Origin: an uncultured Spirochaetota bacterium
Lineage (GTDB): Bacteria > Spirochaetota > Brevinematia > Brevinematales > JAOACQ01
Reading direction: 5' to 3'
Assembly: GCA_963783575.1 (NCBI GenBank)
Contig: CAWAOD010000013.1
Location: forward strand, 128,001 to 192,000
DNA: 64,000 nucleotides
Shown here: positions 609 to 56,586 of the stretch, piece by piece
Numbering within the stretch: position 1 is the first letter of the stretch
Layout of the letters: the number at the start of each line of letters is the position of its first letter
The notes under the pieces: generated by a model
Databases searched by the model: none
What the model was told of the DNA's origin: nothing
The model's input: the letters and a program-made list of their open reading frames with translations, nothing else
Translations under genes and position numbers: made by a program

Positions 609-686
609 GCAACATCGTGTTGCTGCCGAACAGAGTTCGGCTGGATGATGACTATTGGGTGGATGTCATGGGACATCCTTGTCCCC
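609..686 (+). repeat. Three-hairpin dispersed repeat, copy 1
   Basis: GCAACA-tcg-TGTTGC, GCCGAAC-aga-GTTCGGC, GGGACA-tcct-TGTCCC; related copies at 1702, 34063, 49241 and 56464. Confidence 0.8.
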
Positions 687-1068
687 AAGGTTACTTGGTT
701 CGCTTGTTTAAAATTATAATATACTTTCCTCAGAATGATCAGCATTTCCAGGTACGCATGAATCAAATTGCGCTAGCAAAAGTAACATTCTTCCTGCGCT
801 GTGCTTTCCCGTGAATCTTGTAGAAAAGAACACCGGGAGATTGATAAACAATTCTTTTATGATCAACAAAAATCTGAATTAACCGGTTCTCTATGGTTAT
901 TGGCCGGTTGTTCAGTAAGGATGAATAATATAACGGAAGCATTATTTCTAATATTCTTTTTTTGAAATATACAACTACTAAGTAAAATATTCCTTAGCAG
1001 GATTAATAAGGAATAATTTATGAATATTAAGACAGAAAAATCTATTTTTATACAATATTTCATTTCTA

Positions 1069-1433
1069 ATGAATGCTATCTGCAAAATTCCCCTCGATAC
1101 GGAAATCGCTATTGTCTTAAGTGAAGAACTTGAAATTGAAATAACCACTGATATGGTAGAAAGTGCGAGAGGAAAAGAGGAAGGCATAAACCAAATAGTA
1201 AAGAACAATAATTCAAAGATAGAAAAAAGCCAAATATAGCAGAAAAACTATTTGAAAATTTGTTCAAGAAATATTCGCAGGATAAGGATAATACATTTTT
1301 TGAAAGGCCGATTTTTATAGTTATTGATAAAATTGCAGAACTTGCGGCTCTTAACCATCCTCCGGTAAATAGACAGATTGAATTGGAAAATAAAAATTTT
1401 ATTGAAAATATTTTAAAAACAAAGCATAAATGA
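1069..1433 (+). pseudogene. Degraded or frameshifted coding remnant of unknown family
   Basis: Two protein-like frames (MNAICKIPLDTEIA... and ...KKPNIAEKLFENLF...KTKHK*) joined by a shift near 1210; family not recognised. Confidence 0.35.
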
Positions 1434-1701
1434 AATAGTTTTAATTTGGTTAATCGTTTATTCCCGAGCTTAGTATTAATAAACAAAACCCGTTTAAACG
1501 CCCTCCGCAGCATTAGCACCATTTCTGATTGAGCTTTTGTGTGGTTAAATAGGAATCTCTGTATTAATACTGTTGTTATTCCCATTTAATAATAAGAAAA
1601 TCTTTTATAAAACCCGGAATAACAACGCCAAAATTCTAAAAGCTTTTATTTAATATATCATTCCCCCTTAATAAATAATCTATTATTTACTTTAACCAAG
1701 A

Positions 1702-1777
1702 GAACAGGATGTTCAATGGAACTTTTTATAGACTATGCAGATAGCCGAACGCTAGTTCGGCAGCAACACGATGTTGC
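1702..1777 (-). repeat. Three-hairpin dispersed repeat, copy 2
   Basis: Reverse complement reads GCAACA-tcg-TGTTGC-T-GCCGAAC-tagc-GTTCGGC...GAACA-tcc-TGTTC; lies downstream of tsaB. Confidence 0.8.
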
Positions 1778-1883
1778 AGAAATGGTGCTAATGTAAAGGA
1801 GCGGTTCTTTCTTTCGCTTCCTTTCATTCTGTCCGCAACAGAAAGAAAGGAAGAAAGCCATATGCCGTGGCTTTACGGTAAAA

Positions 1884-2585
1884 TTATTTTTTATCCCGCT
1901 GCGCTTCCGCCTCGCTCATCCTTAGATAAACCGGAGAAATGTCTTTAACATCACTTATGATCAAAGGATCTTTTGCCGCTTTTTCAAGCGCCTGACGGCA
2001 GATGATATTTCCCCGGATAAAAGCATCGGGCATAAAATGAATTATTTTGCCAGGAATATTCTGAAATATAGAGCCATGCCGCTGAATACCGTCACCTAAA
2101 ATCATTATATTTTCTTCATCAAATTTCATGATCATATTCCTAAGTTTCGCAGGTTCAATGTCCATATCTTCTGAAATTTTTCCCCCATTCCTGTAAATTG
2201 CCGTAAAAACCTTGTTCATTCTCGCGTCGGTCATCGGTATGGAAATGACATTTTTGTCTGCAACTTTAATACCGGCTGAATCGGTTAAAAGATCAAGGGA
2301 TGAAAGCGGGATAATTTTTTTTGAAAGGCTCCATGCCATTGATTTTACAGCGGCTATCCCTATCCTTAAACCGGTGAAGGAACCTGGCCCGATTCCGACG
2401 GCAAAAACATCGACATCTTTAATATCTTTTTTCAGGATTTTCAATCCCGAATCGATGGCAAAAAATAATTTTTCTTCCTGGCTTAATGGTGCTTTAAGGT
2501 TTATTTCCATCATTTCTTCATTGGAAAAATAAAAGCCGATGGATGTGTAGGTTGCGGATGATGTATCGATTCCAAGTATTGTCAT
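1884..2585 (-). CDS. tsaB: tRNA threonylcarbamoyladenosine biosynthesis protein TsaB
   Basis: ILGIDTS, GPGSFTGLRIG, DARM and P-x-YLR motifs. Confidence 0.95.
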   Translation of the reverse strand: MTILGIDTSSATYTSIGFYFSNEEMMEINLKAPLSQEEKLFFAIDSGLKILKKDIKDVDVFAVGIGPGSFTGLRIGIAAVKSMAWSLSKKIIPLSSLDLLTDSAGIKVADKNVISIPMTDARMNKVFTAIYRNGGKISEDMDIEPAKLRNMIMKFDEENIMILGDGIQRHGSIFQNIPGKIIHFMPDAFIRGNIICRQALEKAAKDPLIISDVKDISPVYLRMSEAEAQRDKK

Positions 2586-3136
2586 AATGAAGCCTCTAAA
2601 TTTTTCCGGAAAATGGATAATCTTGTATCCCCGTAATCTTTTTGTTCTTTAAAAAATGGATAATATGATAGGTCATCCCTGCTGCTGTGCTCTGCAATAA
2701 AGATCCCGCCCTCTTTCAGGCAGGATAAGGCTATCTGAAATATTTCATCGAAATATGGCTTTAAATCAATGTAAAATGGGTCCGCGAAAACAATATCAAA
2801 AAGCTTGTCACCGAGAATTTCGTTATCCAGCTGGGTAACATTGTGTTTTATAGTCCTGTAAGATGATTTATCCTGAACAATGGATTCAAGGTTATTTTTG
2901 AGTATGGAATAAGCCTTGCCCGCGCTTTCGACAAAACATACAAAACCGGCTCCGTTGCTAAGTGCTTCAATGCCTATAGCGCCGGTACCGCAAAATAAAT
3001 CCAGAAACCTTGAATGTTTTAACTTGTTCTGCAGAATATTCATTACAGCCTGTCTGACTTTATCCGTTGTCGGCTTAATACCGGATTTCGGTACGATAAG
3101 GCTTTTGCCTTTATATATACCCGAAGCGATTTTCAT
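2582..3136 (-). CDS. rsmD: 16S rRNA m2G966 methyltransferase RsmD
   Basis: MKIASGxYKG, PTTDKVRQA, LDLFCGTGAIGIEALSNGA, DPFY. Confidence 0.92.
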   Translation of the reverse strand: MKIASGIYKGKSLIVPKSGIKPTTDKVRQAVMNILQNKLKHSRFLDLFCGTGAIGIEALSNGAGFVCFVESAGKAYSILKNNLESIVQDKSSYRTIKHNVTQLDNEILGDKLFDIVFADPFYIDLKPYFDEIFQIALSCLKEGGIFIAEHSSRDDLSYYPFFKEQKDYGDTRLSIFRKNLEASL

Positions 3137-3150
3137 AATACTTAATTACC

Positions 3151-3867
3151 CTAAGAACTGCTGCCGGCGTTGATAAGCGTCCCGGCTTTCTCGCCAAGTA
3201 TCGCGTTTTTAATGTTCCCCTCGGTAAAGATATTAAGGATCATTATGGGAAGATTATTCTCCATGCAAAGCGTAATTGCCGTTGAGTCAACAATCCGTAA
3301 CTGCTGGTTCAGAACTTCCTGATAGCTGATCTCATTGAATTTAACCGCATCTGAAAATTTTTTAGGATCTTTATTATAAACCCCGTCAACTTTTGTCGCT
3401 TTCATCATAATTTCAGCGTTTATTTCAATGGCCCTAAGGGCTGCCGCGGTATCGGTTGAAAAATAAGGATTACCGGTCCCGCCCGCGAAAATAACAATTC
3501 TTCCTTTTTCAAGATGCCGGATTGCCCGCCTGCGTATAAAGCTTTCGGCAACCGACGAGACTGTAATGGCCGATTGAACCCTGGTTTGAAGGTGGAATTT
3601 TTCTTCCAGAACGGCCTGAAGGGCAAGTGAATTTATGACCGTGGCGAGCATGCCCATATAATCCGCGGTTGTTCTGATTACGCCGAAATCTTCCGCGTCT
3701 ATTCCGCGGATGATATTTCCGCCCCCGACGACAACACCAAGATCAACATTGAGAGAGCTGGCTTCGGCTATCTGCTTGGCAACTTCGCTGATTGCCTGAT
3801 AATCAAGGCCGCCTTTTGTTCCCCCGAATACTTCGCCGCTTACTTTCAGCAGGACCCTTTTATACAT
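3151..3867 (-). CDS. pyrH: UMP kinase
   Basis: RVLLKVSGE, GGGNIIRG, DYMGMLAT, GNPYFSTD; start placed at MYKRV after an AGGAGG RBS. Confidence 0.97.
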   Translation of the reverse strand: MYKRVLLKVSGEVFGGTKGGLDYQAISEVAKQIAEASSLNVDLGVVVGGGNIIRGIDAEDFGVIRTTADYMGMLATVINSLALQAVLEEKFHLQTRVQSAITVSSVAESFIRRRAIRHLEKGRIVIFAGGTGNPYFSTDTAAALRAIEINAEIMMKATKVDGVYNKDPKKFSDAVKFNEISYQEVLNQQLRIVDSTAITLCMENNLPIMILNIFTEGNIKNAILGEKAGTLINAGSSS

Positions 3868-3909
3868 ACAGCCTCCTTTTTTATTGATTAAAGGAAGAAC
3901 CAACCGTTC

Positions 3910-3935
3910 AAAAAAAAACCCCTCAAACTGAGGGG
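3910..3935 (-). terminator. Intrinsic terminator between tsf and pyrH
   Basis: CCCCTCA-gtt-TGAGGGG hairpin followed by a T-run on the minus strand. Confidence 0.75.
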
Positions 3936-3943
3936 CTTAATCT

Positions 3944-4777
3944 TTATAAAGAAGCTCTGACGAAAGTGTTAATTTTAAAAGTAACACCTTTAGTTTTTAT
4001 AAAATCATTTAAAATTGACCTGACTTTCTTTTCTTCATCCAGAATAAATAGCTGTTCCAGTAATATGGATTCGTTATAAAACTTTTCCAGTTTTCCTTTT
4101 ACGATGTTTTCAAGTATTTTTTCCGGTTTGCCGGTTGCTTTGGCTTCTTCCATAAACACCGATTTCAACTCGGCAAGCTTATCGGAAGGAATAGTATCAG
4201 TATCGACCGCTACAGGATTCATCGCGGTAATCTGCATCGCTATATTCTTCTGTAATTGCTTGATATCATCATCGATATTGTCCGTTTCAAAATCAACAAT
4301 TACGCCGATCTTGTTAGGACGTAATGAATCCGAATGCATGTAAGGGTATAATTCTCCCTTTGCTTTAATGAACTTCCATTCCGAAATCAGGATGTTTTCT
4401 CCAAGCTTCGCGATGGCATTCCTTCTGAGGTTCTCCAATTCTTCAGGCAATGCTGAAGAGAAAGCGGAATCTTTTTTAAAAATCAATTCCGTAGCATCTT
4501 TGACAAAACTTTTAAAATCTTCCGTCTTGGCCACAAAATCGGTTTCGCAATTTATCTTCACTACCAGGCCTTTTTTGCCCTCTATTTTACACGATACAAT
4601 CCCTTCGTTAGCGGCTCTTCCAACTTTTTTATCGGCTTTATTCAGACCTTTTTTCCTTAAAATTTCTACGGCTTTCTGCATATCCCCGCCGGTTTCTACA
4701 AGTGTCCGTTTGCAGTCTACCAATCCTGCTCCGGTCTTTTCCTGTAACTCTTTTATCAAACTTACGCTAATTTCCAT
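3944..4777 (-). CDS. tsf: Translation elongation factor Ts
   Basis: IKELQEKTGAGLVDCK, NCETDFVAK; located between rpsB and pyrH. Confidence 0.97.
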   Translation of the reverse strand: MEISVSLIKELQEKTGAGLVDCKRTLVETGGDMQKAVEILRKKGLNKADKKVGRAANEGIVSCKIEGKKGLVVKINCETDFVAKTEDFKSFVKDATELIFKKDSAFSSALPEELENLRRNAIAKLGENILISEWKFIKAKGELYPYMHSDSLRPNKIGVIVDFETDNIDDDIKQLQKNIAMQITAMNPVAVDTDTIPSDKLAELKSVFMEEAKATGKPEKILENIVKGKLEKFYNESILLEQLFILDEEKKVRSILNDFIKTKGVTFKINTFVRASL

Positions 4778-4795
4778 AATTTCTCCCTGCACGAT

Positions 4796-5605
4796 TTATA
4801 TTTTCTTTATCAGCTCTTCTTCTATAGCTTCAGCCTCATCAATATCGGCTGTTTCGGATGTTTCATCCAGGACTTCTTCAATTTCCTGCTCCACGTCTTT
4901 CTTAGCCGCAAAAGTCGACCCTTCAATAACGGCATCGGCTATTACGGAAGTCAAAAGCTTAACCGAACGGATAGCGTCGTCATTACCGGGAACGACATAG
5001 TCCAGCAAATCAGGATCGCAGTTAGTATCGGCAATACCGAAAACCTTTACTCCGAGGGCTTTAGCTTCCATAATGGCGTTTATTTCCCTTTTAACATCGA
5101 CAACCCACATCGCATCGGGGATTTTTTTCATATCACGAACGCCTTCGTAGAAGGATTTCATTTTGGTAATTTCTCTTTCAATTTCAAGAGCATCCCTTTT
5201 TGATATGCTTTCCCTTTCACTTTCCAGCTTTTTCTCAAGCCTTTTTAGTTTGTCAATGCTTTTTTTAATGGTTGAATAGTTTGTCAGCGTACCGCCGAGC
5301 CATCTTTTTGTAACATAAGGCATTCCGCAGCGGGAAGCCTCTTCCAGAACCGAACTCTGTGCCTGTTTTTTTGTCCCGACAAACAGAACGGTTCCATCTC
5401 TTGATATCAATTCCTTCATAGAATTGTAAGCTTCTTTAAGCTTGTCCATGGTAAACCGTAAATCTATGATATAAATTCCGTTCCTCTTCATAAAAATAAA
5501 CTGCTTCATTTTCGGATTCCATCTTTTTGTCTGATGCCCGAAATGAACTCCAGCTTCCAGTAAACCACTCATCAGTGCTTTTTCGTCATAGATTATACTT
5601 GCCAT
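4796..5605 (-). CDS. rpsB: 30S ribosomal protein S2
   Basis: LLEAGVHFGHQTKRWNPKM, RWLGGTLTN, PGNDDAIRS. Confidence 0.98.
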   Translation of the reverse strand: MASIIYDEKALMSGLLEAGVHFGHQTKRWNPKMKQFIFMKRNGIYIIDLRFTMDKLKEAYNSMKELISRDGTVLFVGTKKQAQSSVLEEASRCGMPYVTKRWLGGTLTNYSTIKKSIDKLKRLEKKLESERESISKRDALEIEREITKMKSFYEGVRDMKKIPDAMWVVDVKREINAIMEAKALGVKVFGIADTNCDPDLLDYVVPGNDDAIRSVKLLTSVIADAVIEGSTFAAKKDVEQEIEEVLDETSETADIDEAEAIEEELIKKI

Positions 5606-5673
5606 ATCTTCACTTTTCCTCCACATGAATTTTAAATAATTAATTTAAGGGGAATAATGATTTATGTCAAATT

Positions 5674-6948
5674 TTAAACGGAATATGTTCCAAAAAGGCG
5701 GTATATTTTAGCGAACTCGGGATTATTTAAAACGGTGAGTTGAAATGCAAGTTCAATTTCCTCGGGTTGAAAAATGCCGTAAAAAAACTCAATGTCCGAT
5801 GAGAAAAAATTTTCCTGTTCGTCAGATATCTCAAAAGGTGAAGCAATAACGTATTGAGAAGTATTTTTTAAGAATGATGAAGTGATACCTCCGGCAAACA
5901 TTCCGGTTTTACAGCAATTTAAAAAAGCAAAGCCTATATTATCAGCGAAAGGCAGTTCTTCAAGAAGTTTTCCCTCAATTTCAATCAAACCTTTTTCTCC
6001 TATTAATTCTCCATGGCCCGAAAAATGAAAATAATGGGCATTCCTGAGCCCTGTTTTATAATCTGAGAAATTATCGGATGAAAAACATTCGGCTTCATAA
6101 TGTGATTTCACAAGCTGATATAAATTGAATACTTCTTCCCGGGAATTGTTCAGGCGGTTTGAGTAAATAAAGGAGAACCCCCCTGTTTTTTTTAATAAAC
6201 CTGGTTTCCGGTCTATAACCGGAACTAAATTTTTAATATACAGGCTGCCGGATAAAAACTCAAACGGCATGTAAAGGTTTTTATCCTCCCAGAGGATAGA
6301 AAGGCGGTTGCTACGATTCATCCGGCTTTTGTCTTTATCAAAGAGCAAATCAATAAAACCCGGGCTGCTTTTTTCAAATACATCGCGTATTGTTGAAAAA
6401 TGCTCGATTAAATCTTCCCTTCGATTGTTTTTAATCGAAAAATCGGCATTATCCATTATATCATGAAATTCATTTTCAAGTTTTTTCCAGTCATTCCAGT
6501 TAATATAATTTTCCCTGAAAATATTACCCGCCGGATCTATAAAAATAAACCGGACATACATATCCTTTTTTGTTTTAATATGAAGAATATTATCAGGCAT
6601 ATCAAGGTTCCGACCAAATTGGGAAATTTTTTCGAGGTATGTCAAATCAAGGCATAAAAAATCCCGGTTTGCGAATAATACGTTTATGATTCTTTTATGA
6701 ATGGGAAGTTCTTTTAGAGGCTGCCCTTTTATATTCCACCCGGTAAAAGTTTTATCATTTGAAGAATGGATCTGTTCAATATTTATTATACGAAAAAGGT
6801 TCAACTTTTCACTTGAAAATAATGCTGCCATATCTCCCTGATTAAGGGCCGGGTTAATATCCGGCAGGGAGATGGTTGTTTCAAGCAGTTGTTTTGAAAT
6901 CTTTAGATTAGAGCCTTTCAGGCATAATATCCGTTTTACCCCGGCCAT
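5674..6948 (-). CDS. CHAT (caspase-like) domain-containing protein
   Basis: C-terminal HFSGHG and FLNCC motifs match the CHAT His/Cys dyad, preceded by MPFEFL. Confidence 0.65.
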   Translation of the reverse strand: MAGVKRILCLKGSNLKISKQLLETTISLPDINPALNQGDMAALFSSEKLNLFRIINIEQIHSSNDKTFTGWNIKGQPLKELPIHKRIINVLFANRDFLCLDLTYLEKISQFGRNLDMPDNILHIKTKKDMYVRFIFIDPAGNIFRENYINWNDWKKLENEFHDIMDNADFSIKNNRREDLIEHFSTIRDVFEKSSPGFIDLLFDKDKSRMNRSNRLSILWEDKNLYMPFEFLSGSLYIKNLVPVIDRKPGLLKKTGGFSFIYSNRLNNSREEVFNLYQLVKSHYEAECFSSDNFSDYKTGLRNAHYFHFSGHGELIGEKGLIEIEGKLLEELPFADNIGFAFLNCCKTGMFAGGITSSFLKNTSQYVIASPFEISDEQENFFSSDIEFFYGIFQPEEIELAFQLTVLNNPEFAKIYRLFGTYSV

Positions 6949-6958
6949 GATTACCTCT

Positions 6959-7855
6959 TTATTGAGGGGATTTTACTATAACAACGCGGGATTGGTTAAG
7001 GAACTTGACTGTTCTGGGATTTGCGAAAAGGCGGGCCGCGTCTTTTTTGTTTAATACAAGATATGTATTCATCCTTCCTGTTATTGAATAAGGAATGGTA
7101 TAAAAAATATGGGTGCCGCTCCGTGGGGAGTTATAAGCATAGCTGAGGCTTGTAGTATATTCGCAGACGCCGTAATTTTCGAGGGCGTCTTTATCCACAG
7201 TTTCAGGCCCGTAAAGAAGGATGCCGTCCTCATCATAAATCCTCATCTGTATGCTCGGGTTAAACTCTTTATAAGTCATTGTATCAATGATCAGACCGTC
7301 AAAATACTCCATATTTTTTGAGTCTTTCTGTACATAATTTGTCAGCGCAACCTTTTCAATGTCCCGGTAGAAAATACCGGCAATGCCTTCTTTTCCATAC
7401 AGGTTAAGTTCAACCAGCCCCAGGAAATGACCGCTTTGCTGAATAGCAGGATAATAAAACGCGCGGTCGGCATGAGCAATAATTTCGTAACGAACATCGC
7501 TTTTCATTGTATAATAGTCTTTCAGCAAAAAGATGTCAGAAATGCGCACATAGCCCATGGCTTTTATCAGCTTCTGCCTCAATTCGTCCCTGACTTCTGA
7601 ATAATTGTTGTCAACATATCTTCCATAATTTACCGGGCTTTCACTCATAAGGTTATCAATCTGCGATATTACTTTCCCTGTAGTCCAGTTGATGAGGCTG
7701 TCATAGTCGGGAATATTTTCCACAAGCTCATATTTTACCTTTTCACCTTTATTCCAGAGCAAATTAATGCTGTTTGTCTGGGCATTTATTTCATCGGAAA
7801 TCTTTACCGAAATAAAAAAAAGAATAAAAAAGAAAATAGATATTTTTTGCAACAT
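6959..7855 (-). CDS. Exported hypothetical protein
   Basis: 298-aa ORF with a hydrophobic N-terminal signal or anchor and a GGGAGG RBS. Confidence 0.8.
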   Translation of the reverse strand: MLQKISIFFFILFFISVKISDEINAQTNSINLLWNKGEKVKYELVENIPDYDSLINWTTGKVISQIDNLMSESPVNYGRYVDNNYSEVRDELRQKLIKAMGYVRISDIFLLKDYYTMKSDVRYEIIAHADRAFYYPAIQQSGHFLGLVELNLYGKEGIAGIFYRDIEKVALTNYVQKDSKNMEYFDGLIIDTMTYKEFNPSIQMRIYDEDGILLYGPETVDKDALENYGVCEYTTSLSYAYNSPRSGTHIFYTIPYSITGRMNTYLVLNKKDAARLFANPRTVKFLNQSRVVIVKSPQ

Positions 7856-7935
7856 TACCCTCCCGGAAAACTCTAATCTGTAAGATATCCATTCAATTTA
7901 TCGGCCGGATTCTATTTTTATTAATAGGCAATTAT

Positions 7936-7966
7936 AGTCGCTAGTCGCTAGTCGTCAGTCTTTAGC
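7936..7966. repeat. Short heptamer tandem repeat (TAGTCGC)n
   Basis: tagtcgc-tagtcgc-tagtcgt-cagtctt; similar tagtc/gacta units occur at about 49010-49083. Confidence 0.6.
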
Positions 7967-8190
7967 CTTTTTCTTCACATTCTTTCCAGCAACTTTATTT
8001 TAATTGTTTCAAATAATAGCCAAACAACCAAGCCTAACCCGTCTCATCCCCCGCCTTATTGGTCCCTATATTTATCGATCCCGCTGTTGGCATTCTCTTG
8101 TATTGGAATGGGAGCTCTTACCCCTGTAAACCCATGTCTCTATATTATAATAATTAGACCAATAACCAGATTTTAATCACGATGAAAAAG

Positions 8191-8445
8191 CTATTCAGCT
8201 TCCAGCAAACCTTTAACGGAAATATCTTCATCAATAGATTCCCAATGTATTCCGATCCCACCGCCTATAAACTCCCATTCGCTCAGTTCGGCTTCCGAAG
8301 CGTTCCTTAATCGTGGAAACCATTCCAGTGGCGCGGAAACAACGCGGCCGTCTTCAAGAAATACCGTCAATTCTTCTTTTGTAACCTTAACATCTATAGC
8401 TCGCGACGACATTACTACCAGCTTTTGTTTAATCAAAGTATCCAT
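8191..8445 (-). CDS. DUF2442 family protein, putative antitoxin
   Basis: LEDGRVVSAPLEWFPRL...GIHWESIDEDIS; overlaps the upstream DUF4160 gene. Confidence 0.88.
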   Translation of the reverse strand: MDTLIKQKLVVMSSRAIDVKVTKEELTVFLEDGRVVSAPLEWFPRLRNASEAELSEWEFIGGGIGIHWESIDEDISVKGLLEAE

Positions 8446-8665
8446 GCCATGCCTCCTTGAGCAGTTCAAGATTTTCCTCAATGATCCCGCGGATTTCGGT
8501 TAATTCGTGATTTTTAAACCTTATGTTTTCCGCAAGCGATACATCCGGTTTAATCCAGTATTTAGCGTACTGATCACCTTTCGCTATGTGTATATGCGCT
8601 GGTTCATTCCTTTCATTACTGAAAAAGAAAAACCGGTAACCCCGAATATATAAAATCCTTGGCAT
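8429..8665 (-). CDS. DUF4160 family protein, putative toxin
   Basis: MPRILYIRGYRFFFFSNERNEPAHIHI...AWHGYF; AGGAG RBS. Confidence 0.88.
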   Translation of the reverse strand: MPRILYIRGYRFFFFSNERNEPAHIHIAKGDQYAKYWIKPDVSLAENIRFKNHELTEIRGIIEENLELLKEAWHGYFD

Positions 8666-8802
8666 CTGCTCATTACTCCTAAAACATATTTTAACTATCA
8701 GGCAACTTTTTATCAAATTTATTCCATTCAAAAGTATAGCTTTCTCTCAATAATACATCAAAATACAATTCATATCAAAATATTAAATTTCCATTTCCAT
8801 TA

Positions 8803-8831
8803 TTGACAGGTGTATCAGTTTAATCTATAAT
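8803..8831 (+). promoter_or_regulatory. Consensus sigma-70 promoter
   Basis: TTGACA-17 nt-TATAAT, ending 29 nt before the ATG at 8860. Confidence 0.85.
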
Positions 8832-8859
8832 AGACATATTTATACAGGGGTATGTCATT

Positions 8860-10218
8860 ATGGTAAAGCAATCAATCCTGGTGATTGATGATGAAAAAAA
8901 CATTCGTGAAGGGCTGCGCGCGGCTCTCAAACTTGAGGGCTATGATGTCTTGGCTTCCGAAGACGGGCTTGACGGGCTTGAGAAGCTTAAAACAATCGGC
9001 GCAGATGCGGTAATTCTGGACCTGAAAATGCCGAACCTCGGCGGAATGGATTTTCTTGTTCAGGCTCATTCGATAAATAACGAAGCTCCGATAATTATTT
9101 TGACTGGACATGGCGGAGTTGACGAGGCTGTTGAGGCAATGAAGCATGGCGCTTATGATTTCCTGACAAAGCCCGTCAATATAGATAAGCTGTCGCTGGT
9201 TTTAAAGAGAGCGATAGATGAAAATACCAGGCTTCAAAGGCAGAATCAGCTTGAGGAAATGGTTGAGGAAAAATATAATTTCAATAATATCATAGGAAAT
9301 TCCAGGGCTTTTTTAAAGATACTCCAGATTGTCAAGCAGGTTGCCCCGACAGATGCTTCTGTTTTGATCACGGGTGAAAGCGGAACGGGTAAAGAGGTAA
9401 TAGCCAACAGCCTGCATATGAATAGTAAACGTGCAAAAGGACCTTTTATTAAAGTACATTGCGCAGCATTGCCTGAAACTCTTCTGGAAAGCGAACTATT
9501 CGGTCATGAAAAAGGTGCTTTCACCGGAGCGATTGCCAGAAAAAGGGGAAGGTTCGAACTGGCTGACGGCGGAACGATTTTTCTGGATGAGATCGGGGAG
9601 ATTTCACAAAATGTCCAGGTTAAACTGCTCAGGGTTCTTCAGGAACAGGAATTTGAGCGTGTCGGAGGGGAAGAAACTTTAAAGGTAAACCTAAGGATCA
9701 TTACAGCGACAAACAAGGACTTGAAAAAATCTGTAGAAGAGGGAAAATTCCGCGAAGATCTATTTTACAGGCTGAATATTGTAAATATCCATATTCCGCC
9801 GCTTCGCGACAGAAGGGAAGATATACCCCTTTTCGCTGATAATTTCATCAAATACTTTTCCAGAAAACACGGCAGGGATGTGCGGGATATTCAGCCGAAA
9901 GCATTGAAAATCCTTGAAAATTACCGCTGGCCCGGAAATGTCAGGGAACTGCAGAATTTGATTGAAAATCTGGTAGTTTTAAATACCGGAAATACTATAA
10001 CCGAAGATATGCTGCCCCTTTATATAACAGGTTATGCCGGCAGCGGGGGTTTTCAGGTGGAACCCGGCACTCCCCTGGATGAAATAGAGAAGAGAGCCAT
10101 ACTTTCCACGCTTGATTATTCCAATGGGAATAAGTCTCATGCCGCTAAAATATTAAATATCGGGCGTAAAACACTCCTGCGGAAACTTGAAGAATATGGT
10201 TTACAGAATAAAGAATAA
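8860..10218 (+). CDS. Sigma-54-dependent response regulator (NtrC family; REC-AAA+-Fis HTH)
   Basis: REC domain (DLKMP), [30 protein letters not shown]-terminal HTH. Confidence 0.96.
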
Positions 10219-10313
10219 TATTTTCTAATATTATATCGATCTTTTACAAAATTTATTTTTTATTGTATAATTTTCGTCCATAATTAGTTTGTATTATATA
10301 TTTCCGGAGGTTT

Positions 10314-11405: not shown

Positions 11406-11423
11406 TTAACATTAGAAAAAATA

Positions 11424-11447
11424 AAGGCTGCCTCTTCGGGCAGCCTA
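11424..11447. terminator. Hairpin terminator between convergent asd and hsp20 genes
   Basis: AGGCTGCC-tcttcg-GGCAGCCT stem with an A-tract on the left. Confidence 0.7.
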
Positions 11448-11488
11448 ATTAATTAACCTCAATGTAACAGGGTTAAGCATCATGCTTA

Positions 11489-33342: not shown

Positions 33343-34071
33343 TTGATAGTATATGGTAGAAATTCTGTTGATGAAGCCCTGATTGAGGGTTTAAAAATTC
33401 AAAATGTTATGGTGGAAAAAGGTAAAGAAGAAAAGTTTTTTAATTTAACAAGCCGGTTAAAAGAAAAAGGGATTAAAGTTCAATTCGCTCCCCGGGTAAT
33501 TCTTGATAAAACATCACAAACATTGAAACACCAGGGAATTCTGGCTGAATTGATCCTGCCCGAAAATATCATAGAGGATGATAAGGATTTTGACGGCTGG
33601 GATTCCATGAATGCTGTGATCGCACTTGATGGAATTACAGATACCGGCAACCTTGGTGCCGTCATTCGATCCGCCCTGTTGATGAAGTTTGATGCCGTTG
33701 TCCTTCCCAATGACAACAGCGCCAGGATTACTCCGCAGACAATCAAGGCGTCAGCAGGGGCGATTTACAAGGAAAAAGTTGTTTATATAAACAGCCTGAA
33801 CCGCTTTATCGATAAAATAAAAGAAACCGGGTTCTCGGTCTACGGACTTGAAGGGGAGTCCGAAACTCCAATTACGGATGTAAAATTTCCTGAAAAGGTT
33901 TGTCTGGTTGTTGGGGCGGAAAGAAAGGGGATCCGCAAATCCGTTAAGCAGAAGTGCGACATGCTTATAAAAATACCGACATCCCGCAAAATTGACAGTT
34001 TTAATGCGTCTGTCGCGGGGGCGATTGCTATGTGGGAAGTTTACAGAAACAAGCGTGACCGTGCGACATAG
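33343..34071 (+). CDS. rlmB: 23S rRNA Gm2251 methyltransferase (TrmH/SpoU family)
   Basis: YGRNSV, HQGI, GNLGAVIRSA, GAERKG, SFNASVA; TTG start after AGGAGG. Confidence 0.9.
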   Translation: MIVYGRNSVDEALIEGLKIQNVMVEKGKEEKFFNLTSRLKEKGIKVQFAPRVILDKTSQTLKHQGILAELILPENIIEDDKDFDGWDSMNAVIALDGITDTGNLGAVIRSALLMKFDAVVLPNDNSARITPQTIKASAGAIYKEKVVYINSLNRFIDKIKETGFSVYGLEGESETPITDVKFPEKVCLVVGAERKGIRKSVKQKCDMLIKIPTSRKIDSFNASVAGAIAMWEVYRNKRDRAT

Positions 34072-34187
34072 TGTCGCTTGGCGAACTTTCGTTCGCCACT
34101 ATCTTTATGTTACTTGAAGAGCTCGTCATGGAACATCCTGCTCCACTTTTGGTTTTGTGGCATCGTGCAGCTAAATATCTCATTGCG
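34063..34187 (+). repeat. Three-hairpin dispersed repeat, copy 3 (long form)
   Basis: GCGACA-tag-TGTCGC, TGGCGAAC-tttc-GTTCGCCA, GGAACA-tcc-TGCTCC; 3' extension shared with the copy at 56464. Confidence 0.8.
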
Positions 34188-34291
34188 TTTCTGTGCGTGG
34201 TTTGATGAGCCAGCCTACACCGGGATCTACAGCAGGTAGACGGCAGACAGGTCGGATCACAGGACAGGCTCCTTGGCCAGTTTTTAATTGA

Positions 34292-45105: not shown

Positions 45106-45415
45106 ATATTAATCCCTCAATTGTCATGTCATCGATCGACAAAATAAATTTTATTAATAATTGTTATTCAGATTATATAACATATAATATAGATTATATA
45201 ATACATAATATAAAAAATAAATATTATTAATAAATCTACCCTTATCTTATTCTATGAAATAAGGAATCATTTTTATTATTTATTTGACAAATTCAGGATT
45301 TGTATTAAAATTAAAAAGAAGTATTATTCTTTATTAGGTGATATAGAATATTATTAGGAACAATTTAAAAATTGAAAAAGATCCTTTTAAGAATTTATCT
45401 TAGGAGGTTGATTTT

Positions 45416-46135: not shown

Positions 46136-46145
46136 GCTTAATATT

Positions 46146-46763
46146 ATGAATAAAATTCTTTTTTTTTGTTTATTGACAATGTTTTGTTCAGGTTTGTTTT
46201 GCGCTCCATCTTTTCTAAGCATAACGCCCCTTGATTCGGGTAAAGTAATGCTTCAGGCAGGAGTTGATATTTTTCTCAGCACAAATGATTTATCCTCCCT
46301 GTTTGATGGCGGAATTAGAGTTGGGTTACCCATTCCGAAGGGCAGTGATTTCGGGTTTAGATTATACAGTAGCGGAGCTATATTCGATCTGAAATTACCT
46401 TTATTTTCTTTTGAGCCTCTAAGTACCGCTGTTGATATGGAATGTGATATATATCAAAGAACCTATATCCTGTCATCCATATCACCGGCCTTTATCGTTG
46501 ATGTTGCACTGTCGCCATATCTTAGCTTTTATTTCTCACTTAGATGGCGTTATCCGGCCGTTCAGGAAATAGATTCGACAAACCCTTTTCCTGATTTACA
46601 AACCAATGTTTATGTCAGCGGTGTAGTATTTTATCCCCGGGTAGGCATAGAATTATTCAGAAAATGGAATTTCTCAATTATCCTGGAGGGCGGACCTGTG
46701 ACAAGCTGGTACTCGAGAGATCTTGGAATAAACGGAGGCGGTGTTCTGGAATATAAATTTTAA
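46146..46763 (+). CDS. Exported, probable outer-membrane hypothetical protein
   Basis: Signal peptide MNKILFFCLL...; C-terminus GGVLEYKF. Confidence 0.7.
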   Translation: MNKILFFCLLTMFCSGLFCAPSFLSITPLDSGKVMLQAGVDIFLSTNDLSSLFDGGIRVGLPIPKGSDFGFRLYSSGAIFDLKLPLFSFEPLSTAVDMECDIYQRTYILSSISPAFIVDVALSPYLSFYFSLRWRYPAVQEIDSTNPFPDLQTNVYVSGVVFYPRVGIELFRKWNFSIILEGGPVTSWYSRDLGINGGGVLEYKF

Positions 46764-47099
46764 TAAGCATGCCCCTTTGCTATTCTCAAGGCTTTATCAA
46801 AATTTTAAACATTAAATTGATCATAAATTGAGCAAAGTTTATATTAATGGCTACTATATTATTATAAAATATTAACTCTATAACATATTTAAAAATTCTA
46901 ATTTTGGAAATAAAAATATTCCTGTCAACTAATTTTCCATTTATCACAATAAGGATTGAATAAATTTGTAATTTTAAAATAAAGAATTTTAAATTAATAA
47001 TTTAATTTGCCGATATAATTATTCTTTGAGTATTATAAATATATTATTATTTCAAAAATCTCGAAATTTTTATAATTAAAAAATTATTAAATGAATAAT

Positions 47100-47129
47100 T
47101 TGACACTTTTTATTAAGCCATGTTATACT
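47100..47129 (+). promoter_or_regulatory. rRNA operon promoter
   Basis: TTGACA, then TGnTATACT (extended -10), with an AT-rich upstream region. Confidence 0.75.
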
Positions 47130-47215
47130 ACTCACCGCCTGTGGAAAGACAGGGGTGAAGAAAAAGGGAAAGATAGAGTAAAGGTAATAGAACGAAGGTG
47201 AGTGTTCAGAAGAAG

Positions 47216-47283
47216 TCTACCGAGAGGTAGAAACTATCGAAAGATAGTAACCTATCGAAAGATAGTAACCTATCGAAAGATAG
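47216..47283 (+). repeat. Tandem GNRA hairpins in the rRNA leader
   Basis: TCTACC-gaga-GGTAGA, then three 18-bp-period units of CTATC-gaaa-GATAG. Confidence 0.85.
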
Positions 47284-47373
47284 GAGAGCAACAAATAAAC
47301 GCGAAGCGAAGAGCTAAGCGTGAAGCGAAGTATCAGGTCAAACCAGTGAGGAAGAAACGAAGAGATAATATTT

Positions 47374-48905
<1,532 letters not shown>

Positions 48906-48935
48906 ATAGGGAGAAAATAATGTGGTAGTAGAGTA

Positions 48936-48963
48936 GTAGAGACACAAGAGATTGTGTCTCTAC
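48936..48963. repeat. GTAG-type REP-like palindrome in the ITS
   Basis: GTAGAGACACAA-gaga-TTGTGTCTCTAC; a related GTAGAGATGCAT...ATGCATCCCT lies on the minus strand at about 56791-56816. Confidence 0.7.
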
Positions 48964-49089
48964 GAAAGCCACACAAAAAGTCTGAACACTCATCTTTTAT
49001 ATATAAGTTAATTAGTCAGTTAGTTTGCCAGTCGGATAGTCGTAGATGACTGAAAGGCTGGCTGACTAACCGACTAATCGACTGTATTG

Positions 49090-49163
49090 GGGTGTATAGC
49101 TCAGTTGGTTAGAGCGCAGCCCTGATAAGGCTGAGGTCGGTGGTTCGAAACCACCTACACCCA
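49090..49163 (+). tRNA. tRNA-Ile(GAT)
   Basis: Cloverleaf; anticodon arm CAGCC-ctGATaa-GGCTG. Confidence 0.97.
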
Positions 49164-49168
49164 TGTGC

Positions 49169-49241
49169 GGGGATATAGCTCAGCTGGGAGAGCGCCTGCC
49201 TTGCAAGCAGGATGTCAGGGGTTCGATTCCCCTTATCTCCA
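49169..49241 (+). tRNA. tRNA-Ala(TGC)
   Basis: Cloverleaf GGGGATA...TATCTCC-A; anticodon arm CCTGC-ctTGCaa-GCAGG. Confidence 0.97.
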
Positions 49242-49323
49242 GAACATCGTGTTCTTCGGCAAATCAGAGATTTGCCATAGTTTAAGGTAAAAGGGAAGAT
49301 ATCATGGAACATCCTGTTCCCAT
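49241..49323 (+). repeat. Three-hairpin dispersed repeat, copy 4
   Basis: AGAACA-tcg-TGTTCT, GGCAAATC-aga-GATTTGCC, GGAACA-tcc-TGTTCC, directly after tRNA-Ala. Confidence 0.75.
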
Positions 49324-49471
49324 TGTTTAAACGTATGGTAGAAAGGATATTTCAAATAAATGTTTTTATTTAAGATAAAAGTAGTAGAGAATTCGTTCAG
49401 AATTCTCCTAAATTCAAAAAGCTTTGCGAAGCAAAGCGCATTTGAATAAGGTTATAGGAATAAGGTAAGAA

Positions 49472-52388
<2,917 letters not shown>

Positions 52389-52414
52389 TTCTTTCCTTAT
52401 TCCAGACAAGGGAG

Positions 52415-52439
52415 GACAAGGGGTTTAAACCCCTTGTCG
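52415..52439. repeat. REP-like palindrome in the 23S-5S spacer
   Basis: GACAAGGGGTTTAAACCCCTTGTC has the same ACAAGGGG/CCCCTTGT arms as the IS4 target. Confidence 0.7.
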
Positions 52440-52460
52440 TTTACCTTGCCGTCTTTTTTT

Positions 52461-52567
52461 GCCTGATGACCATAGCGAAGGTGTTACACCCGGTCCCATT
52501 CCGAACCCGGAAGTTAAGCCCTTCGTCGCCGATGATACTCGCAAGGGGAAAGTAGGTGTCGTCAGGC
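52461..52567 (+). rRNA. rrf: 5S rRNA
   Basis: GCCTGATGAC...CCCATTCCGAAC...GTCGTCAGGC. Confidence 0.95.
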
Positions 52568-52610
52568 TTTTTTATTTCATGAGTACATCCCAGAGGTTTG
52601 GTATTTTAAT

Positions 52611-53258
52611 ATGAGGATAATATCTGCAATAATTTTAAGACTATTATTACTGACCGGCATGTGCATTATTACCTTAAATCTCTTTGGAGAAGATCAGATA
52701 AAAAGTCCGGATTCACCCGATGAGCCAAAGGTTGAAGAAGTACAAATACCTGAATTGAAAGTTGAAGAAGTTTCAAATTTTGAAAATAACAAATTGTATT
52801 TATTCAGGGTAAAAGTAGACCTTTCTGACGGAACTGCAATCACCGGCACTATGAATCTAACAAATAACCCGATATTTGTAATCACAAATCAAATCATAGG
52901 ACAGATTAATATTTCAACGATATCAATATATCAGCTGGATAAAATAGAAATAATAAAATGGCAGCCGGAAAGAAAAGATAAAGATTTATTCCTTTTCAAA
53001 CCGGTTGAATTTCGTTTTTATACCAATCAAACAGATAATTATATATCATACCGAAATCCAATTAATGAGTTAAGCGATATTCAAATAAGCAATGATTCTT
53101 ACGGAAGAAAACATATTTTTTCCATATTCTACGACCGATGGATAGAAGGAAAAAAGAACGCTTTCCGCTGGGATAATTCAAAAGCCTCGGTTTTTCCCTA
53201 CAATTATGACCATCCGATTCCAGGAGTTATTCAATCGATTACTTTTATAAAAAATTGA
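52611..53258 (+). CDS. Exported hypothetical protein
   Basis: 215-aa ORF with a hydrophobic signal region. Confidence 0.75.
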   Translation: MRIISAIILRLLLLTGMCIITLNLFGEDQIKSPDSPDEPKVEEVQIPELKVEEVSNFENNKLYLFRVKVDLSDGTAITGTMNLTNNPIFVITNQIIGQINISTISIYQLDKIEIIKWQPERKDKDLFLFKPVEFRFYTNQTDNYISYRNPINELSDIQISNDSYGRKHIFSIFYDRWIEGKKNAFRWDNSKASVFPYNYDHPIPGVIQSITFIKN

Positions 53259-53278
53259 TCATTCCATGAAATAATATA

Positions 53279-54895
53279 CTAATCCAAGCTTTTTTGTTCT
53301 TCTTCCTTCAAAAGGTATTTTTTCGCCGCATCTAATAATTCTGCTATATAGCTGATACGATTGAGGTACTTTGATTGTCCCGTTGTTGATGTGCAAAGGC
53401 GTTTTAAATTGATTTTAAATTGAGTAAAAGTTCCGAATACGCGGATATCATTATACTCATTTTTTGAAGGAAGGAAAAGTGTTTTTACATCATCTATAAA
53501 AAGACGGGCTTTATCCAGTATTATGCCTTCCTTTGAGATACGGTAGTATTTTATAATAGTAGCGATTCTATCATACAGCCAGTAGGTGGATTTAATTATC
53601 ATTTGATCGGAAGTCCTGTAATTTGCTGTTTCTTTTGGGGAAATTTTTCCAGGCAGGATTACATCTTCGAAATTTGTACTTCTTGCATGGTCCGGTACAT
53701 CGAATTGATTGAACCCCAATTTATGATGAAGGATTTCCCCTTTTTCATTAACGATGGGGGCAAGATCGAATTTTAGCCTTTCTATGAACTTGGCCAATGC
53801 GGTATATAATTCAATAAAAAACCGTGAATCTATTATCCTTTCCTCCGGCACTTTTTTATCATTATCCGAAGGAGTTATTTTGGAGACGGATGGTTTATCA
53901 GAAATAATATTACTTGATGAAATGCCGCCGGTTTGAGGAGAATAATTAATGCCAGTCCTGATTTTTTTATTATTTCCGTATTCAAATAAATCCAGGAAAT
54001 AATCGAATATCCTTGAAAATATATCCCTTTCTAGCTCATCTATATCTGTTAGTCTAACCCGTCCTTCAATATATTCAATTTTACAGTTCATTGATGAAAA
54101 AAGAGGGGAGACTAGATCGATCGAGAAACAAATCAATATATCTTCCAATCTTTCTTTAAAGTTGCGGATTTTCTTTACAGGAGGGATTTCATTATTAAGG
54201 CTTACAACTGCCAGGCCATACTCCGTAAGTAAGATTTCCAGGTCTTTTATATAACCGTAAAGTCCGCCGATAAAACTTATAAGATGTCCCGATTTTAAAG
54301 GCGGTATATTTGAGCTTCTTGATAGTAAATATGAATCCTCAATAAAGTTACATATTGAATAAATATTTTCCAGATCCTGACAGTTGATTTCAATTACCTG
54401 GAGTTGTTCGGTCGACTTATTTTCAGCGGTTTTAATGCTTTCAATTATGGTTTTTAAATCATTTATGATTGATTTGAGTTCCTGGTTTATGGGTTGTATC
54501 TTCCCGCCGAAAAAATTTGTAAAAAAAACACCGTCCGGGGATTTAATTTCTTTAAAATAACCTATCAATAGATTTGCCTCGATTGAATTTCCGGGAACAG
54601 CATGGGACAGATTTTCGATTTTAATATTATCCTTATAAATCAAATCAGGGTATTTATCCGGATGAGCTTTATAATCAAGATCAAAAATAAATTTTTTGAT
54701 TGAATAAAAATATTTGCTTTTATATCTCTGTTTAAAATAATACTCGTTTTTTACGAAATCGATGATTTCCCGGCTTTCCCTGTTAAGAATTAATTCATTA
54801 TCAAAATGAAAATAATAAAAAGACATTTTTTGTATTATTTCTTTTAATAACAAATAAATTTGCTTTGGTGCGGCGGCCTGTTCCATTGATAACAT
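53279..54895 (-). CDS. Hypothetical protein
   Basis: 538-aa ORF with no recognised motif. Confidence 0.75.
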   Translation of the reverse strand: MLSMEQAAAPKQIYLLLKEIIQKMSFYYFHFDNELILNRESREIIDFVKNEYYFKQRYKSKYFYSIKKFIFDLDYKAHPDKYPDLIYKDNIKIENLSHAVPGNSIEANLLIGYFKEIKSPDGVFFTNFFGGKIQPINQELKSIINDLKTIIESIKTAENKSTEQLQVIEINCQDLENIYSICNFIEDSYLLSRSSNIPPLKSGHLISFIGGLYGYIKDLEILLTEYGLAVVSLNNEIPPVKKIRNFKERLEDILICFSIDLVSPLFSSMNCKIEYIEGRVRLTDIDELERDIFSRIFDYFLDLFEYGNNKKIRTGINYSPQTGGISSSNIISDKPSVSKITPSDNDKKVPEERIIDSRFFIELYTALAKFIERLKFDLAPIVNEKGEILHHKLGFNQFDVPDHARSTNFEDVILPGKISPKETANYRTSDQMIIKSTYWLYDRIATIIKYYRISKEGIILDKARLFIDDVKTLFLPSKNEYNDIRVFGTFTQFKINLKRLCTSTTGQSKYLNRISYIAELLDAAKKYLLKEEEQKSLD

Positions 54896-55237
54896 CCTAA
54901 AAGATTAAACGTAATTCTTGATTAATGAAAAGAATCCCTAAATTGTAACTAAATTTATTAAGTAAATCAATATTATTGAAGCCATAGTAATCAATATTCC
55001 TTGTAAAACCGAATTTTTGATTTAATAAAAAGTATATTTTATTATTATAATCGGATTAAACAGCATAATTTTTACAACAACTGTTTTTTTATATTGACAT
55101 ATTTTTAGAAATTAAGTATATTTATCCTTCAATTAATTATTTTTTCAATTGATTGAATATCTTTTATTATAACCATCGGTGATAAAGCAGATTATTAAAC
55201 CGATTTAATTTTAATATTTTATGAAAAGGAGGAAAAA

Positions 55238-55396
55238 ATGGATAAGTATGTTTGTGATGTTTGCGGATATGAATATGATCCGGCGGTCGGAGACCCGGAT
55301 TCCGGGATTAAACCCGGGACAAAGTTTGAGGATTTACCGGCGAATTGGCTATGTCCGGTTTGCGGTGCCGCTAAAGATCAGTTTTCAAAAGTTTAA
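55238..55396 (+). CDS. Rubredoxin (52 aa; absent from the ORF track)
   Basis: [15 protein letters not shown]...[22 protein letters not shown]. Confidence 0.95.
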
Positions 55397-55434
55397 AATC
55401 TGGTTAAAAGAAAAATTGATCGATAGGAGGTTTT

Positions 55435-55842
55435 ATGCTGTTATTTGAATGGAATGATAATTATAGTGTTAATGTAAAAGAATTTGACAACCAACATAAA
55501 AAGCTTATTGATCTTATTAATGAACTTTTCGAAGCTATGAAAAGCGGCAGAGGAAAAATTATTCTTGAAAAAGTTTTCCTTGATTTAATTGAATATACTA
55601 AGGTGCATTTTTCAGCTGAAGAAAAACTCATGAATCAATATGATTATCCGGACAAAACTGTTCACATTAATGCACATAATGAATTAACCGGTAAAGTTAT
55701 TGAATTGCAGACGGAATTTAAAAACGGGAAAATATTTATTTCAATAGATACAATGAACTTCCTGAAAGACTGGCTGACAAAGCATATTCTTGGAATGGAC
55801 AAAAATTACAGCAGTTTTTTTAATAGTAAAGGTATAAAATAA
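55435..55842 (+). CDS. Bacteriohemerythrin
   Basis: WNDNYSV, DNQHKKL, HFSAEE, HxxxH, WLTKHILGMD. Confidence 0.93.
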   Translation: MLLFEWNDNYSVNVKEFDNQHKKLIDLINELFEAMKSGRGKIILEKVFLDLIEYTKVHFSAEEKLMNQYDYPDKTVHINAHNELTGKVIELQTEFKNGKIFISIDTMNFLKDWLTKHILGMDKNYSSFFNSKGIK

Positions 55843-55866
55843 ACTAAAATTAGAAGGGGGAATACA

Positions 55867-56457
55867 ATGGCTAATTTGAAAGGTACAAAGACAGCGGAAA
55901 ATTTATTAAAGGCATTTGCCGGTGAATCTCAGGCAAGGAACCGCTATACATTTTATGCTTCTCAGGCAAAAAAAGAAGGTTTTTTGCAGATTGAGTCAAT
56001 TTTTCTTGAAACCGCTGAAAATGAAAAAGAGCATGCCAAGCTCTACTATAAACACCTGACACAAAATCTGGATCCTGATTCTATGCAGGAAATCCAGGCG
56101 GGTTATCCTGTCGCATTGAGCGGGAACACTGTAAATAACCTATCCAGTGCGGCAGCAGGTGAGCATGAGGAATGGGTAAAACTTTATCCCGAATTTGCGA
56201 ATACTGCCGATCGCGAGGGCTTTACCGAGATTGCCACCACATTCCGGAATATAGCAAAGGTTGAAGAAAGGCATGAGGCTAGATATAAAAAGCTTGCCGA
56301 TAATATTAAAAAGAATTCGGTGTTTAAAAAAGATGTTAAAGTATTCTGGATATGCAGGAATTGCGGACATATTATCGAATCAAAGGAAGCGCCTCAAAAA
56401 TGTCCGGTTTGTCAGCACCCGCAGGCGTATTTTCAGCTCTTTGTCGAAAATTATTGA
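55867..56457 (+). CDS. rbr: Rubrerythrin
   Basis: AFAGESQARNRY, EKEH, EERH, C-terminal CRNCG...CPVC. Confidence 0.95.
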   Translation: MANLKGTKTAENLLKAFAGESQARNRYTFYASQAKKEGFLQIESIFLETAENEKEHAKLYYKHLTQNLDPDSMQEIQAGYPVALSGNTVNNLSSAAAGEHEEWVKLYPEFANTADREGFTEIATTFRNIAKVEERHEARYKKLADNIKKNSVFKKDVKVFWICRNCGHIIESKEAPQKCPVCQHPQAYFQLFVENY

Positions 56458-56463
56458 CCATTG

Positions 56464-56586
56464 TGCCCATGCGGCATCGCTGCCGAACTGGCGTTCGGCT
56501 GTCTGTTGAATCTTGGGTGGCCCTCATGTAGCATCCGTGCTCCACTTCTGGCTTTGTAACGTCGTGTAGCTATAGTTATTATTGCG
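56464..56586 (+). repeat. Three-hairpin dispersed repeat, copy 5 (long form)
   Basis: GCCGAAC-tggc-GTTCGGC, AGCA-tccg-TGCT; 3' extension ctccactt...tcgtg.agct...attgcg shared with 34063. Confidence 0.7.

Follow-up and report, generated by a model that had tools for sequence, protein, structure and literature searches.

Five copies of a three-hairpin repeat lie in one contig

The DNA analyzed here (the window) is a stretch of 64,000 nucleotides (nt), positions 128,001 to 192,000 of contig CAWAOD010000013.1, from an uncultured Spirochaetota bacterium of the GTDB lineage Brevinematales; JAOACQ01 (assembly GCA_963783575.1). It holds five copies of a repeat unit built from three short hairpins, H1, H2, and H3. 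The genome, hereafter G000, comprises 4.9 Mb and is 90% complete, with the window on its contig C13; the sole same-genus relative, G001, is 57% complete and ~72-78% identical to it in coding DNA. A preliminary description had placed the five copies behind an ankyrin gene, tsaB, rlmB, a transfer RNA (tRNA-Ala), and a rubrerythrin gene. Pfam returned ankyrin repeats, the TsaD/TsaB family, SpoU methylase, and rubrerythrin, and the tRNA-Ala was confirmed. All five copies were recovered by a covariance model built on 24 copies, including four from the window but leaving out copy 5, with scores of 88.3, 85.4, 75.5, 73.8, and 53.7 bits for copies 1 to 5, respectively.

Copy 1 (605..699, plus strand) illustrates the layout. 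A lead-in at 605-608 is followed by H1 at 609-623 with a TCG loop, H2 at 625-641, a spacer ending in TCAT, H3 at 670-685 with a TCCT loop that reads as a GGA-type loop on the minus strand, and a tail at 686-699; H1 starts 4 nt past the TAA of the ankyrin gene. Copy 2 (1688..1781, minus strand; H1 start at 1777, H3 at 1701-1715) does have a TsaD/TsaB-family neighbor but is no simple 3′ tail, as it sits immediately behind one arm of a larger element with inverted repeats (1511..1793), within which it is nested. In copy 3 (34059..34158, plus strand; H1 at 34063-34077), the TAG loop of H1 (34069-34071) is the stop codon of rlmB, and the last rlmB codons differ from those of the G001 orthologue, which lacks the copy. 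Copy 4 (49237..49336, plus strand) lies in a ribosomal RNA (rRNA) spacer, with H1 (49241-49255) starting at the final base of tRNA-Ala; the second rRNA operon carries a near-identical copy, and the G001 spacer carries none. Copy 5 (56467..56560, plus strand; H2 from 56482) is the first module of a ~340-bp repeat stack between rubrerythrin and galT. Its H1, correctly noted as degenerate, is shortened by a small deletion that recurs at two other loci. The H1 and H2 layout of the window copies was otherwise as first described, while the H3 stems are perfect over 6 bp in copies 1 and 4 and have one mismatched pair each in copies 2, 3, and 5.

The unit forms a large, diverged family with a conserved fold

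An iterated nucleotide profile gave 117 matches in G000 at E<=0.01, whereas the best match in a locally shuffled genome had E=2.1. At E<=0.05, the count rose to 119 units, grouped into 97 clusters (78 singles, 16 pairs, and 3 triples), so that tandem arrays make up 19 of the 97 and contain three units at most. The three-hairpin repeat is thus a genuine family, far above chance. Mean pairwise identity between copies was 60% and the median to the nearest neighbor 79% (95 sequences), and this low identity indicates that most copies are old.

The unit spans ~100 nt and runs from a 4-nt lead-in through H1, a single T, H2, the spacer, and H3 to a 14-nt fading tail. Across 81 copies, the lead-in reads C (62), pyrimidine (78), any base, and T (71), and no conservation was seen upstream of it. 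H1 has 6 bp and a TCG loop, H2 has ~7 bp and a variable loop, and H3 has 6 bp and a TCC or TCCN loop; the A/T-rich spacer between H2 and H3 is mostly 25-30 nt long and ends in TCAT. The G of the H1 loop is kept in 79 of 87 copies, so the other strand reads CGA, and on that strand H3 forms an A(N)GGA loop on a stem closed by CA/UG in 63 of 72 parsed copies (loops TCC, TCCG, TCCT, and TCCC). An unpaired T flanks H1 on either side (72/87 and 80/87 copies). The consensus fold consists of three separate hairpins of 5-7 bp with no enclosing stem. The preliminary description had not noted the lead-in, the tail, or the GGA loop of the opposite strand.

The preliminary description had reported compensatory changes in the stems, and these proved substantial. 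In the 24-copy alignment, 96% of stem cells were paired, 12 of 17 pairs showed double changes, and none of 500 shuffles reached the covariation score. When 87 distinct copies were placed on a tree, columns that pair with each other showed 66 same-branch double changes where 8.6 were expected; the ratio for non-partner stem columns was 1.46. The covariation is genuine, yet it is compatible alike with selection and with template-switch repair. No consistent column pairing supported a fourth hairpin in the spacer. A mini open reading frame from the ATG at H3 was also considered and set aside, as frame lengths vary and a 3- or 4-nt loop shifts the frame. Matches to a ribosome site were somewhat above random on both strands of the unit.

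Empty sites, junctions, and nesting point to mobility

The unit was missing from G001 at every one of the three orthologous sites that could be tested, namely those at rlmB, in the rRNA spacer, and in the rubrerythrin-galT gap. Rubrerythrin and galT lie ~20 bp apart in G001 and ~340 bp apart in G000, and the G001 rRNA spacer holds other sequence at the site of copy 4. Most copies had unique upstream flanks and a sharp 5′ boundary. Units were also nested within one another, with junctions in the H2 loop, the H3 loop, and the H3 foot, and inserted into other repeats. These findings support the mobile hairpin unit that had been offered as one option at the outset, and the family is very probably a mobile parasitic repeat.

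Copies inserted in other repeats helped to place the 5′ end. In filled host repeats, the next base was T in all 7 found, some of which are copies of one event, whereas the base after the host in empty repeats was G in 3/3, A in 14/15, and A in 18/19. From this comparison, the first base of the element is T, preceded by a C-Y-N or T-Y-N site (Y, pyrimidine; N, any base). Among 57 distinct full copies, no target duplication of at least 4 nt was found beyond permuted controls. No terminal inverted repeat of at least 9 nt joined the ends of copies 1, 3, and 5, and the arms around copy 2 belong to its host element. The H1 end is precise and the H3 side variable: 12 matches lacked the H3 end and 4 non-array matches lacked the H1 end.

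In G001 (locus L066), an apparent protein-coding insert lies after tRNA-Ala, where copy 4 sits in G000, and suggests an insertion hot spot.

The same data can be read as spread by module recombination, in the manner of a BOX-like mosaic or of tyrosine-recombinase cassettes, with stem pairing arising partly through template-switch repair. Modular tandem units without H1 fit this explanation (5 of the 9 matches lacking the H1 end start at H2), as does the replacement of host sequence on the 3′ side. In copy 4, bases that the empty G001 site also contains are overlapped by the left arm of H1 and matched by its right arm. Six near-identical copies moreover travel within a 405-aa insertion sequence (IS) element that we take to be IS1182-like (C5:474951-481331, C10:76058-82498, and C9:386593 among its locations), each element carrying one unit in antisense just past the transposase stop. 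Most copies, on the other hand, have the unique upstream flanks and sharp boundary noted above, and the Ts beside H1 stay unpaired, where repair free of selection would presumably have lengthened the stem. Tree-aware covariation cannot separate selection from repair. Overall, we regard recombination as an improbable source of the family.

Copies show a strong sense bias only close to the stop codon

Gene calls for the placement analysis came from a crude longest-open-reading-frame script (>=120 aa), which misses short and RNA genes. Orientation was counted for 91 of the 97 clusters, after five IS-borne duplicates and one contig-end cluster had been dropped. The upstream gene lay on the same strand in 54 clusters and on the opposite strand in 37, so the earlier statement that copies always lie in sense just 3′ of genes is true only of the window. 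In co-directional gaps, 31 sense clusters against 22 antisense ones showed no significant orientation bias (p=0.27). Such a bias did appear close to gene ends: within 20 nt of a stop codon there were 29 sense and 5 antisense clusters (p=4e-5), and the 29 of 54 that are stop-adjacent compare with 12.7 expected under uniform placement in the same gaps. H1 begins directly after TAG in five cases, and in four, rlmB among them, the gene reads into the element. Convergent gaps were enriched (23 of 91 clusters against 246 of 1,894 gaps), and of 8 pairs of close opposite-strand neighbors, 7 were divergent and 1 was not, as read on the GGA strand.

This pattern raises the possibility that copies are kept as 3′ mRNA stability or processing elements, with selection generating the sense bias at gene ends. 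The 29-to-5 excess, the enrichment between convergent genes, and a slight wobble preference for the strand carried by sense transcripts all favor such a role. The 37 clusters that do not follow a same-strand gene, the lack of a significant bias in co-directional gaps, and the absence of the unit from the G001 orthologues speak against it, as does the way copies cut into coding ends such as that of rlmB and into other repeats. No intrinsic terminator was found on the sense strand in window positions 560-1900, which contain copies 1 and 2, and the tail consensus has no T run. We therefore consider it improbable that a dedicated 3′ stability or processing RNA, as originally suggested, is what the family exists for, although copies may have side effects on some mRNAs.

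The unit is confined to one genus among the genomes searched

Of 60 other relatives searched with the RNA model, 1 (G001) contained copies. The remaining 59 yielded none with 67 candidates scored per genome, and neither did 150 genomes of the phylum with 27 candidates scored per genome. G001 itself gave four strong and three weak matches, of which two strong ones are on a contig 98% identical to G000 DNA and may not be independent. An exact-pattern scan gave 0 matches in viral contigs. Its hits elsewhere, in 2 GTDB contigs and at 16 metagenome loci, were rejected as chance, since all 18 score <=17.7 bits and lack the layout. Two G000 contigs, C7 and C17, contain no copy of the repeat; their G+C contents of 52% and 49%, compared with 37% elsewhere, mark them as possibly mis-binned or foreign DNA.

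The hairpins resemble those of TwoAYGGAY

Rfam was searched at gathering level for the whole window and by E-value for positions 450-2000, and only rRNA, tRNA, and chance matches were returned. The closest comparison is with TwoAYGGAY, Rfam family RF01731 (Weinberg 2010, PMC2864571). Against the RF01731 cut-off of 43 bits, G000 has three sub-threshold matches (27-37 bits), none of them on copies of the unit; they fall on the ~240-bp repeat family that hosts copy 2. Matches above the cut-off occurred in 2 of 141 phylum genomes. The H1 stems of the unit occur 37 times in one spirochaete genome (G128) with TCCN loops, inside above-cut-off RF01731 matches, and 46 times in another (G054). H1 is thus probably, judging by these shared stems, a TwoAYGGAY-type hairpin whose loop has changed to TCG.

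TwoAYGGAY has been described as multicopy, enriched in divergent doublets, and mobile-like (bioRxiv 10.64898/2026.09.22.753630). Like TwoAYGGAY, the unit has many hairpins dispersed between genes that read CA-TCC(N)-TG on one strand and form a GGA loop when read on the opposite one; the two also have in common divergent doublets, large copy-number differences between relatives, and a mobile-like character without a known enzyme. The unit differs in having no basal stem, whereas the true RF01731 matches in G128 have a long one. The hairpins of the unit instead follow one another in a line, with H2 as an addition and a spacer of fixed length; it has one GGA loop with the other loop reading CGA, and it shows strong stop-codon adjacency. 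The unit is accordingly not a member of RF01731, since its score, the two AYGGAY-type loops, and the common basal stem are all lacking. It does have the traits of a TwoAYGGAY-like class (shared stems, multicopy intergenic spread, and divergent doublets), and we are fairly confident that it is kin to these hairpins. The initial view that no known family applies holds insofar as Rfam has no match, but the tie to the TwoAYGGAY class lowers the novelty. No description of the unit was found in the open literature, searched without the supplement of the TwoAYGGAY preprint, whose figures for further phyla may be relevant to how new the unit is.

CsrA binding has been proposed for TwoAYGGAY (Gardner and Eldai, PMC4333381). 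The September 2026 preprint treats as unresolved both the way in which these repeats spread and the purpose of their loops, be it CsrA or mobility (bioRxiv 10.64898/2026.09.22.753630). By extension, the opposite strand of the unit could be a dispersed CsrA-binding RNA, acting as a predicted sponge or regulatory site. G000 encodes csrA, and GGA hairpins like that of H3 are found in three of its flagellin leaders. The opposite strand of H3, with its A(N)GGA loop, is of the type seen in these leaders and in CsrB/Rsm RNAs (PMC4333381). The unit nevertheless presents a single GGA loop, and its H1 loop is kept as TCG (CGA on the other strand), which lacks the motif. The CsrB/Rsm arrangement of several GGA hairpins per transcript was not seen, as each unit has one such loop and no array has more than three units. 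Where copies lie at gene ends, it is mostly the non-GGA strand that enters the mRNA (29 to 5), leaving the GGA strand largely untranscribed. No promoter-like match was found in copy 1 or 2, and the unit has no evident promoter or terminator, unlike CsrB/Rsm RNAs. Taken together, this CsrA role is a shade less probable still than the stability and recombination explanations.

Comparison with other repeat classes

REP, BIME, and REPIN sequences, which are mobilized by TnpA-REP (RAYT) proteins, are likewise short extragenic hairpins present in ~100 copies with conserved loop bases (PMC3333891, PMC8266576, PMC3116915). They also share with the unit conserved 4-mers at the hairpin feet, mosaic arrays, and no observed target duplication. 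The unit departs from them in lacking a GTAG guide, with C-Y-N-T leading into H1 and TCAT before H3, in occurring as singles in 78 of 97 clusters rather than usually as inverted doublets, in having three different hairpins per unit, and in flanking no RAYT gene. BOX, RUP, and SPRITE of Streptococcus pneumoniae offer parallels of another kind: they are genus-restricted, reach ~100 copies, have modular tandem middle units, nest, are enriched in convergent gaps and at gene ends, and reflect an old burst (PMC3049150). Unlike BOX and RUP, the unit has neither terminal inverted repeats nor target duplications (PMC3049150, PMC3184786), and unlike SPRITE it has no U-rich tail (PMC3049150). Integron attC sites are single long, imperfect hairpins that bear R''/R' boxes and extrahelical bases, whereas the unit has three hairpins of 5-7 bp. 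The C-Y-N junction resembles the C|T-type site of HUH single-strand cleavage, a likeness that is suggestive only.

Candidate enzymes and neighboring repeats

No copy of the unit flanked an HUH or RAYT gene in this 90% complete genome, an association that the preliminary description had proposed to look for. Two broken Y1/RAYT-like genes (L001:1429-1991 and L002:1426-1782) lie 0.8 and 2.8 kb from a copy. A RAYT was rejected as the mover because neither Y1 gene is intact and both come with a different, GC-rich hairpin of their own, which another IS appears to use as a landing site. The IS1182-like elements were likewise set aside. The 405-aa element carries one copy, and a second one, with a 494-aa transposase that we presume from its sequence to be of the same family (C5:363991-370457, C9:291080-293148, and C11:247476-249379), sits inside a different hairpin nested in the H3 loop of the unit, so we read these elements as passengers and squatters. 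Copying of the GGA strand by a reverse transcriptase, as in a retroposed RNA of the short interspersed element (SINE) type with a precise H1 end and a ragged tail, agrees with the end asymmetry (12 versus 4) and with seven reverse-transcriptase matches in the genome, but is very unlikely given the lack of target duplications, the lack of any sequence link to a reverse-transcriptase element, and a distance of 2.7 kb between a copy and the nearest such gene.

The element that hosts copy 2 (1511..1793) is bounded by perfectly matching inverted arms of 17 nt (1511-1527 and 1777-1793) and contains an inner stem in which 1572-1582 pairs with 1616-1626. It belongs to a separate ~240-bp repeat family with about 20 other loci. 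Some members have two TCC-loop hairpins and three are the sub-threshold RF01731 matches, and such members are closer to true TwoAYGGAY than the three-hairpin unit is. Between copies 1 and 2, a multicopy intergenic module (760..920, plus strand; 5-20 blastn matches per position) is followed by an apparent frameshifted gene remnant (1020-1434, plus strand); elsewhere in the genome, the same module has a three-hairpin unit inserted in it. Further multicopy modules lie behind copy 5 (56590-56790, ~22 blastn matches) and copy 3 (34200-34260, ~32). Repeats cover ~79 kb of the 873 kb of intergenic DNA in G000 five-fold or more.

A proposed transfer as folded single-stranded DNA

On balance, we favor an old, non-autonomous, TwoAYGGAY-like mobile element that an enzyme encoded elsewhere probably moved in the form of folded single-stranded DNA; for the single-stranded route itself, we put the chances as even. 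The folded-DNA mechanism is suggested because fold and loops are conserved over sequence, the junction is sharp and falls at a pyrimidine site, target duplications are absent, and the unit nests in itself. Loop bases and short sites are read by the enzyme in HUH-type systems (PMC3333891, PMC8266576, PMC3116915). The mover would read the fold together with the near-invariant loop bases, keeping the stems paired while their sequence drifts. The strand with the TCG and TCC loops would be inserted where single-stranded DNA lies exposed, for instance in the untranslated rRNA spacer or in the non-template strand just behind a stop codon. R-loops form behind untranslated RNA. If the TCC strand is joined into the non-template strand laid bare as ribosomes release, a sense bias close to stops would follow. 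Selection acting later, for example against antisense copies that place GGA sites in mRNA tails, is an equal alternative cause of that bias. Any effects on mRNA stability or CsrA would be by-products. We infer the enzyme, the intermediate, and the strand of the proposed transfer alike.

Stem mismatches give a weak sign that the TCC strand is the folded one: on that strand, G.T outnumbered A.C by 66 to 40, in both G-C and A-T columns. This excess is modest (p=0.015, from copies that are not independent), and several observations weigh against the proposal as a whole. Single-copy folding z-scores were more extreme on the GGA strand for all five window copies. The relative G001, at its level of coding identity, is too distant for its empty sites to fix exact ends. 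Behind the tail, host repeats fail to pick up again cleanly, an outcome equally consistent with module exchange and with insertion. Replication-strand bias was absent from co-directional gaps (26/53) and divergent gaps (8/15); convergent gaps did show one (20/23), on a noisy skew. Finally, no flanking pattern emerged for Y1, GIY-YIG, integrase (tyrosine recombinase), reverse transcriptase, IS110, or DUF559 genes, with TnpB, HNH, and unannotated proteins outside the search.

Implications

We also considered a broader and decidedly speculative proposal, in which GGA-hairpin TwoAYGGAY repeats in general would be structure-defined, single-stranded DNA jumping elements whose loops mark recognition by an undescribed mover rather than CsrA sites. 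If so, the lineage studied here would be a natural experiment, in which one loop has switched to CGA, is expected not to be bound by CsrA, and is equally conserved. The unit would also home to the DNA strand exposed just past stop codons, which would make it a transcription-targeted element. Direct tests are limited, as no laboratory system is known for the organism.

For annotation, the repeat is better masked than labeled a regulatory RNA, and some gene ends, such as that of rlmB, have been rewritten by it. The family is one more lineage-specific intergenic repeat and a new architectural variant of a recurring class. Its ~90 diverged full-length copies, defined 5′ junction, GGA-to-CGA switch, and stop-codon bias provide testable constraints on how GGA hairpins spread.

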